This document shows positions 59,048-60,755 of a DNA stretch of 64,000 bases, one piece after another. This DNA is from Octopus vulgaris (Eukaryota), in NCBI GenBank assembly GCA_951406725.2, contig OX597815.1, forward strand, positions 89,342,001 through 89,406,000, in the 5' to 3' direction. Numbering within the stretch: position 1 is the first letter of the stretch; every line of letters starts with the position of its first letter. The translations under genes and the position numbers were made by a program. The notes beneath the pieces were generated by a model. The model was given only the letters and a program-made list of their open reading frames with translations, did no database searches and had not been told where the DNA came from.

Positions 59048-60755
59048 ACCTACGGACGTACGTTTCGAGATCAAGTTTTAGGATATCATAAGAATTAGAA
59101 AATTCTACTTTACCCAGACTTCTTCTCTCATCGGCGCAGGATACTACAATTGTGAATAATTGTATATTAAATTTTGAGATACTAGAATGCGTCATCTCAA
59201 CTCAGTGTCAGAGCGAGCCAAAGCATGACCAGTACCACGAAATTCAAAGTTTGAATGAAAGTTTGTGTCACCAGCCCCCTTCCACCCGCGTGTAGCCAAG
59301 ACAAAATGCTGTGGTCATTTACTGGGATAAAATATGGTTATCAGTAATAATAAAAGGGTGAAATTAATTAATTAGGGATAATTATCAATTACACCAAGTA
59401 GATTTCGGTATGTAAAAGCCCCATTCGAGGAAAATTTAAGTAATACTAAGTAATTAAGGGTTTAGCAACAAATTGCCTCACCAACACACCGAATTTAGAA
59501 ATAGCAGTCAAAGAGATATAGCTATTCCTTCTACTAAAAGGGGGATCTCAGTAAAAACACAGCACTTAAAAGGCAAACAAATTTTATCCCAGTAAATGAC
59601 CACAGCATTTTGTCTTGGCTACACGCGGGTGGAAGGGGGCTGGCGACACAAACTTTCATTCAAACTTTGAATTTCGTGGTACTGGTCATGCTTTGGCTCG
59701 CTCTGACACTGAGTTGAGATGACGCATTCTAGTATCTCAAAATTTAATATACAATTATTCACAATTGTAGTATCCTGCGCCGATGAGAGAAGAAGTCTGG
59801 GTAAAGTAGAATTTTCTAATTCTTATGATATCCCAAAAACTTGATCTCGAAACGTACGTCCGTAGGTAACTTAAAATTGCATGATGGATTGCCGTCATTT
59901 CATTCTTTCTTTCTTACCTGTCTGTGTTTGCCTTTTAAGTGCTGTGTTTTTACTGAGATCCCCCTTTTAGTAGAAGGAATAGCTATATCTCTTTGACTGC
60001 TATTTCTAAATTCGGTGTGTTGGTGAGGCAATTCGTTGCTAAACCCTTAATTACTTAGTATTACTTAAATTTTCCTCGAATGGGGCTTTTACATACCGAA
60101 ATCTACTTGGTGTAATTGATAATTATCCCTAATTAATTAATTTCACCCTTTTATTATTACTGATAACCATATTTTATCCCAGTAAATGACCACAGCATTT
60201 TGTCTTGGCTACACGCGGGTGGAAGGGGGCTGGTGACACAAACTTTCATTCAAACTTTGAATTTCGTGGTACTGGTCATGCTTTGGCTCGCTCTGACACT
60301 GAGTTGAGATGACACATTCTAGTATCTCAAAATTTAATATACAATTATTCACAATTGTAGTATCCTGCGCCGATGAGAGAAGAAGTCTGGGTAAAGTAGA
60401 ATTTTCTAATTCTTATGATATCCTAAAACTTGATCTCGAAACGTACGTCCGTAGGTAACTTAAAATTGCATGATGGATTGCCGTCATTTCATTCTTTCTT
60501 TCTTACCTGTCTGTGTTTGCCTTTTAAGTGCTGTGTTTTTACTGAGATCCCCCTTTTAGTAGAAGGAATAGCTATATCTCTTTGACTGCTATTTCTAAAT
60601 TCGGTGTGTTGGTGAGGCAATTCGTTGCTAAACCCTTAATTACTTAGTATTACTTAAATTTTCCTCGAATGGGGCTTTTACATACCGAAATCTACTTGGT
60701 GTAATTGATAATTATCCCTAATTAATTAATTTCACCCTTTTATTATTACTGATAA
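59048..60755. repeat. fold-back tandem array of a ~590-bp HHR-containing unit (0.9 inverted plus 2 direct copies) inside (TA)n
   Basis: 59048-59579 is the reverse complement of ~59925-60456; direct copies start at 59581 and 60171. Confidence 0.95.
59774..59866 (+). ncRNA. type-I hammerhead with CCGAUGA core and extended stem II (also 60364-60455 on +, 59049-59140 on -)
   Basis: CCTGCG-CCGATGA-GAGA-(~54 nt incl. agaatt/aattct hairpin)-TCTC-GAA-ACGTACGT-C-CGTAGG; GUC cleavage predicted after 59860. Confidence 0.82.

Follow-up and report, generated by a model that had tools for sequence, protein, structure and literature searches.

A young copy of a 589-bp retrozyme family with a U4C hammerhead in Octopus vulgaris and the family's likely copying by a Neptune-like Penelope enzyme

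We analyzed a short tandem array that lies within a 64,000-nucleotide stretch of the Octopus vulgaris genome, hereafter the window. We consider it likely that the array is a very young copy from a family of 589-bp non-LTR retrozymes that are copied from RNA into (AT)n by a Neptune-like Penelope enzyme at two sites, with a ribozyme that would act only as a dimer and that is weakened by a U4C change but tolerated. Judged by its sequence, the array is a young copy of a non-LTR retrozyme as this class is defined in the consulted portions of two accounts (Li, Clavereau and Pollet, 2026, bioRxiv 10.64898/2026.07.22.740005; Cervera and de la Pena, 2020, PMC7229834). Both the element class and the U4C variant are already known.

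Architecture of the array and its hammerheads

The array consists of 2.0 forward units and 0.9 inverted unit of a 589-bp repeat, set between (AT)n tracts, and its two arms are 99-100% alike and joined head to head (sequence comparison, array 59047-60754; Table 1). The first-pass annotation had described a 590-bp unit, which holds for the first forward copy, where stem II has gained 1 nt, but not for the family, whose unit length is 589. With a loose descriptor we found three type I hammerheads, two consecutive and forward, one inverted, with one hammerhead per tandem non-coding unit. The variant core that had been read there earlier, CCGATGA, is present at all three motifs and departs from the canonical core (C3 U4 G5 A6 N7 G8 A9, G12 A13 A14 A15, U16 H17) only at U4, which is replaced by C. 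The base of stem II, GAGA/TCTC, encloses 54 nt (copy 1) or 53 nt, in agreement with the roughly 54 nt first estimated, and is followed by GAA-ACGTACGT-C; stem III is the 8-nt palindrome ACGUACGU, and stem I has 6 bp (CCTGCG/CGTAGG). Cuts are predicted after 59860 and after 60449, and we number unit positions from the predicted cut (position 1 = 59861). The expectation that standard descriptors would miss the motif was correct: Rfam gave no hammerhead on the array at E<=10, and on the whole window microsatellite-driven miRNA hits stood alone among the matches listed (150 of 198).

Table 1. Features of the array and its flanks, in positions of the window
Feature	Position	Strand	Details
Left (AT)n tract	58900..59048	.	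74.5 copies; putative target site
Inverted arm	59049..59579	-	0.9 unit; outer start 59047/59049; from unit position 65 (internal junction) to 6-8 (outer end)
Forward arm	59581..60754	+	2.0 units; start 59575/59581; ends at fixed site S2, unit position 305-306
Right (AT)n tract	60755..60812	.	
Hammerhead copy 1	59774..59866	+	C3 59780; stem I 59774-79/59861-66; core CCGATGA 59780-86; U4C at 59781
Hammerhead copy 1, 3' parts		+	stem II 59787-59848; GAA 59849-51; palindrome 59852-59; C17 59860
Hammerhead copy 2	60364..60455	+	C3 60370; U4C at 60371; stem II 60377-60437; C17 60449
Hammerhead copy 3	59049..59140	-	C3 59134; cut predicted at 59055/59054
589-nt monomer, as predicted from cut to cut	59861..60449	+	used for circular folding
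Fixed end site S1	60045..60075	+	unit positions 185-215, mode 201 = 60061, right after AAACCCTT; putative reverse-transcription start 1
Fixed end site S2	60135..60180	+	unit positions 275-320, modes 297, 305 and 312, after TTTCACCCTT; putative reverse-transcription start 2
S1-S2 stretch	60065..60149	+	candidate enzyme-docking region; strongest BLAST similarity with the 545-560-bp sister family

The unit holds no stop-to-stop frame of at least 100 aa except one 102-aa frame that runs into an (AT)n tract, and a reading frame with RT and GIY-YIG domains is absent from the array, so that no autonomous Penelope-like element is present here; a tRNA-like head on the unit was looked for and not found. 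Metazoan non-LTR retrozymes, in the portions of their descriptions consulted, share with the array a non-coding tandem with one type I hammerhead per unit, dispersal as monomers to multimers, an AT-rich, self-paired monomer and co-occurrence with autonomous Penelope-like elements. The unit falls within the 51-972-bp range of the 2026 survey (bioRxiv 10.64898/2026.07.22.740005) but is longer than the 170-400-nt circles of invertebrate retrozymes (PMC7229834). What sets the family apart is a stem II interior of 52-62 nt, the 8-nt palindrome and a U4C change fixed in an amplifying clade, and head-to-head arms with two fixed ends are not described in the consulted parts of either retrozyme account (PMC7229834; bioRxiv 10.64898/2026.07.22.740005).

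A second, 507-bp retrozyme-like array lies at 41962-45500 of the window (hammerhead core CTGATGA, 33-nt stem II region, ACTAAGTTAGT stem III, A17), and its hammerhead, which has an unpaired base after A9, was missed by the loose descriptor. Its geometry had been likened to that of the present array and its body called different, which we also find: there is no BLAST hit between the units at E<=1e-10. Relatives of the 507-bp array adjoin the 589-bp family in 3 of 150 loci. Directly adjoining the array under study is a near-perfect hairpin element with 64-bp arms and CTGATGA...GAAAC (60801-61001), which occurs in 7 of 150 family loci and in none of 38 Neptune-like loci. On the other side, a hairpin-rich stretch (58640-58899) abuts the left (AT)n tract and has no further copy among the 150 loci. 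Farther upstream (52220-55139 and 57002-58340) lie LINE reverse transcriptase fragments, with an RVT_1 hit at 53652-55136 on the minus strand, and a transposase-like stretch that is broken and has no hit in Pfam.

Insertion ends and the candidate copying enzyme

To describe the ends of family copies, we mapped 242 arms at an identity of at least 78%, a threshold that dropped weaker hits and removed most of locus L080. The arms come from 150 loci, which lie mostly on contigs C1-C4 and were chosen as the best hits and the pattern matches listed first. We found that 208 of the 242 arms end 3' in (AT)n, with 123 ends at S1, 71 at S2 and 14 elsewhere; the two fixed sites, which lie downstream of the cut by 200-310 nt, thus account for 194 of the 208 (AT)n-flanked ends. 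The 76 head-to-head pairs comprise 51 of S1+S2, two of S2+S2, none of S1+S1 and 23 with at least one off-site end, and where both ends are on site, 51 of 53 pairs are S1+S2 (P about 1e-13 versus random pairing). At the 74 single-orientation loci, 60 arms end at S1, 13 at S2 and one elsewhere. The 5' ends, for their part, are spread along the entire unit. More than one unit is covered by 106 of the 242 arms (longest, 10.4 units), some of which run through up to ten cut sites, and array-specific variants are often common to the units of one array, usually in both arms.

That the array could be a DNA-level satellite or a fold-back (assembly) product without an RNA step is hard to reconcile with this footprint, and we regard it as highly improbable. 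The 99-100% identity of the tandem units and the fragility of (AT)n tracts speak for such an origin, but the family is dispersed over many contigs, S1 and S2 ends come one per arm, and internal junctions are random. Moreover, the unit-to-unit join, which also exists as DNA, is present in contigs of three other public runs, and one strand alone folds unusually well: the 589-nt monomer, folded as a circle, has a predicted z of -4.1 in the sense orientation versus -0.9 for the antisense strand, with 40 shuffles for each.

In the copy under study, the inverted arm ends 2 nt beyond stem I (CGTAGG-TA, then (TA)n), an atypical outer end whose terminal TA is shared with the microsatellite. The first-pass annotation was right that the arm halts at the edge of stem I; its suggestion that the ribozyme fold influenced where synthesis ended did not hold up, since the pattern of this end has a single match genome-wide, namely this copy, since the 194 on-site ends lie at two other sites, and since the outer end is likely the priming side. 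By analogy with target-primed reverse transcription, we infer that the outer arm end marks the start of copying and not a stop. Because the end of the inverted arm includes bases past the cut, its template would have been uncut or religated at the cut site. The forward arm of this copy ends at S2 and its partner is expected at S1, yet the partner ends at position 8; off-site priming at the TA by stem I, or a later loss of about 193 bp between TA microhomologies, could have produced this S1 arm. At the opposite ends of arms, 5' junctions fall at unit positions 1-8 in 8 of 242 cases versus 3.3 expected (P 0.02, uncorrected; another 8-nt window has 12), an excess just after the cut that fits weakly with run-off from cleaved RNA or with stalling at stem I. 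Separately, the inverted arms of L008, L010 and L023 all have their 5' junction at the same place, unit position 46, and a further junction cluster lies at 236-249.

We propose that an (AT)n tract is cut, that each of the two resulting ends would serve as a primer on a multimeric or circular RNA template, one at S1 and the other at S2, and that the two cDNAs would then join head to head, with one arm per site. In the anole Penelope element, reverse transcription starts at two internal sites and AT-rich DNA is cut on both strands (PMC11167929, consulted in part), a behavior that, by analogy, fits the S1/S2 footprint. The Penelope-type context named in the first-pass annotation gains support from the head-to-head arms, the two 3' end sites and the (AT)n target. 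Penelope-like elements, in the consulted parts of three papers (PMC8557442; PMC4209133; PMC11167929), have in common with the array partial tandems with an inverted 5'-truncated copy, two 3' ends (the 'tail'), a microsatellite insertion bias and a palindromic dimer-type stem III. In contrast to Neptune-clade Penelope-like elements, the 589-bp unit lacks a reading frame and its hammerhead is not minimal, and its end sites lie about 100 nt apart versus 30-40 nt in Penelope-like elements. If it holds, the one-arm-per-site rule yields a sharp prediction for the way in which the Penelope enzyme makes inverted insertions.

For an autonomous partner, 97 of 29073 candidates were scored. A Neptune-like frame adjoins one family copy (L079); we assign it to this clade provisionally, by its motifs and PMC8557442. 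This lead pointed to two young Neptune-like families with 784-aa RT and GIY-YIG frames, whose copies run into (AT)n at either of two sites separated by about 35 nt. One of the families shows the head-to-head form, with an arm ending at each site, in 3 of 8 loci; its second site reads TTTTCACCCTTAT like S2, and it carries a minimal U3-A8 hammerhead; in one of the two families, the descriptor detected no hammerhead. The unit has no significant DNA similarity to the two families (best BLAST E 0.43), and for this reason the Neptune-like partner is inferred from the footprint only. As for the Neptune-like frames themselves, they are intact at L132:4452-8113, L137 and L139, where a separate 440-470-aa frame in another phase precedes them, and the tail region sits within a CTCGTG/CACGAG hairpin. 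Degraded Penelope fragments adjoin family copies at L018 and L061, and these are presumably Naiad-like, judging from a DKA motif.

The family, its sister family and the predicted fold

A pattern search of the whole genome (2.8 Gb, 227 contigs) for the long-stem-II hammerhead returned 456 matches with CTGATGA and 381 with CCGATGA, while reversed control patterns returned 1 and 0; with positions 4 and 7 left free, the family comprises at least 1121 hammerhead copies (control 0). Position 7 is U, A or G depending on the subfamily, and the stem II interior measures about 52-62 nt. One young subfamily (G000:C1:10836774 and L094) has a 62-nt interior, a CTGAAGA core and a unit of about 594 bp. A sister family with units of 545-560 bp gave 2431 matches (control 109). 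Its unit is collinear with that of the 589-bp family from end to end, with 58-59% identity; it retains U4 along with the palindrome of the 589-bp family, has a stem II of 24-25 nt and ends at the homologous two sites. Over the S1-S2 stretch, the two families agree at 73% over 85 nt (BLAST, E 3e-10). None of 30 sister-family loci contained a Penelope-type frame. The roughly 2400 sister hammerheads (L246, L257, L267 and others) have a GUU/GUA cut site and occur in arrays of at least 11 units, and their short stem II often opens with a U-U or other mismatch. A short-stem-II form with the same GUC site gave 7 matches only; the short form proved to be the sister family, which cuts at GUU/GUA.

The long stem II is a trait of the whole 589-bp family and, with one short-stem sister as the reference, would most simply be an extension. 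Speaking of a stem II 'insertion', as had been done, is therefore reasonable because the homologous sister family has a 24-25-nt stem II, but the feature does not mark this copy, being family-wide and recurring in other families. About eight further hammerhead-like candidate motifs in the fetched loci, found with the loose descriptor, have stem II regions of 33-80 nt.

A palindromic stem III is established as allowing activity as a dimer (PMC4209133 and PMC6765202, in the parts consulted). Consistent with the dimer-type stem III proposed initially, the natural tandem from hammerhead 1 to hammerhead 2 has the double hammerhead as its predicted unconstrained minimum-energy fold, whereas in the monomer the active fold would cost 3.9 kcal/mol with C4 and 3.2 kcal/mol with U4. 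Position 4 of the monomer core is predicted to pair with the palindrome with a probability of 0.63 for C4 versus 0.12 for U4. We then asked whether the stems are conserved among copies, using 23 hand-picked subfamily representatives; stem I keeps its pairing, and within stem II compensatory changes are confined to the basal helix. The six core stem I pairs show standard pairing in 138 of 138 cells, and at two pairs in the base of stem II both partners have changed (A-U/G-C, in 10 sequences and in 1), with the first stem II pair broken in three sequences; the distal helices showed no double change among these representatives. A shuffle control was mixed (0/500 for both-side-changed cells, 297/500 for both-side-changed pairs). 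RNAalifold predicted no distal helix and placed the core in an inactive form, paired to stem III at its 3' end, and the stem II extension is as variable as the rest of the unit (0.27 versus 0.22 of columns). The invariance of the core and stem III is partly circular, as the search patterns required them.

History of U4C and the role of the ribozyme

U4C arose once, and amplification then continued through successive subfamilies. In a midpoint-rooted tree of 115 of the 150 loci, those with the full 440-nt segment, all 62 sampled C4 loci form one clade that is nested, ladder-like via several subfamilies, among U4 lineages; the position-4 column was kept in these data, and the C4 branch carries about eight changes. 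Support for the clade is 100/99 in a 48-row subset, with the bootstrap not fully settled. The copy under study lies at the youngest tip of the clade, and the youngest 30 loci differ by 0.4% from the majority sequence. The U4 of the sister family supports U as the probable ancestral state. Runs whose labels name two other organisms yield contigs with C as well as T at position 4, a finding that suggests that U4C predates the lineage of this genome, if the two labels stand for distinct species. The same core change is a known natural variant of a viroid hammerhead, with considerably lower activity in vitro but viable in vivo (Ambros and Flores, 1998, as cited in PMC3088659, consulted in part); here, in contrast, the hammerhead that bears it is genomic, of type I and dimer-type, and the change is fixed in 381 copies. 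The core variants in Ambros and Flores (1998) and in Lunse et al. may overlap with the present one.

In our preferred reading, the predicted dimer-only ribozyme is likely weakened yet tolerated after U4C, which would slow cutting enough to matter little, or to favor longer templates. We saw no effect of U4C on insert length among pattern-picked loci, with medians of 678 bp for C4 (36 loci) and 677 bp for U4 (73 loci).

It is possible, though rather doubtful, that the C4 hammerhead keeps full activity in vivo, thanks to compensation by the long stem II or by a protein, and that unit-length circles serve as templates whose rolling-circle reverse transcription gives multimeric arms. Within the C4 clade, the two sides of a basal stem II pair changed together from A-U to G-C, without exception (10 A/T, 52 G/C), the sole stem I change preserved pairing, and the 161 cores hold 160 C and 1 A at position 4, thus zero reversions although U4C makes a CpG. 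C4 loci also supply 7 of the 8 junctions at positions 1-8, and circles have been demonstrated for coral, mussel and axolotl retrozymes (PMC7229834, in the part consulted). The G-C pair is, however, found in U4 clades too, and hence possibly recurrent or recombined; multimeric linear transcripts account for the arms equally well; the lowered activity of the viroid variant in vitro, described above, counts against full activity; and 1 of 9 Xenopus retrozyme dimers was cleaved in vitro (bioRxiv 10.64898/2026.07.22.740005, consulted in part).

The opposite case, which we think unlikely, is that the C4 hammerhead is a dead passenger and that the S1-S2 region, together with multimeric transcripts that read through, suffices for amplification. 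In its favor, a second weakening change, A10.1 opposite C11.1, has spread in a separate U4 lineage (18 of the 97 U4 cores read; L062, L074 and L189 are examples that still amplified), catalytically dead hammerhead mutants of the anole element still insert in vitro (PMC11167929), and Naiad elements thrive without canonical hammerheads according to the consulted part of PMC8557442, where the role of the hammerhead in Penelope-like elements is stated as unclear. Weakly in its favor as well, four runs that we guess to be RNA yield contigs that cover the unit and span the cut site uncut; such contigs cannot reveal ends or circles and are no sign of independent transcription, and none of the public runs that hold the unit is on record as RNA. 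Yet compensatory and pair-keeping changes go on within the C4 clade, where no further core change is found in at least 3 of the 62 loci, a count of low power that is partly circular.

Distinctly improbable, in our estimate, is that the C4 clade behaves as a ribozyme 'cheater': its own core would be nearly off, which would protect its RNA, and canonical U4 sister transcripts would process it in trans. Such trans processing is conceivable because each core of the double hammerhead cuts the GUC of its partner and because U4 and C4 share the palindrome and have compatible stem I strands. If true, the two-site Penelope docking region would set retrozyme success, and catalysis would be a shared good. 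The family offers matched natural lineages (canonical U4, U4C, A10.1-C11.1, and short versus long stem II by way of the sister family), and because all of them amplified, genomic success can be compared with the rate of cleavage. It thereby provides a natural experiment that bears on how much hammerhead catalysis counts in the spread of retrozymes.

Elsewhere in the window, at 40300-41400, a broken Penelope remnant is followed by a minimal hammerhead-like motif that also has C at position 4 (CCGAAGA). We take the remnant to be probably Poseidon-like from the motifs of its thumb and GIY-YIG-like pieces.
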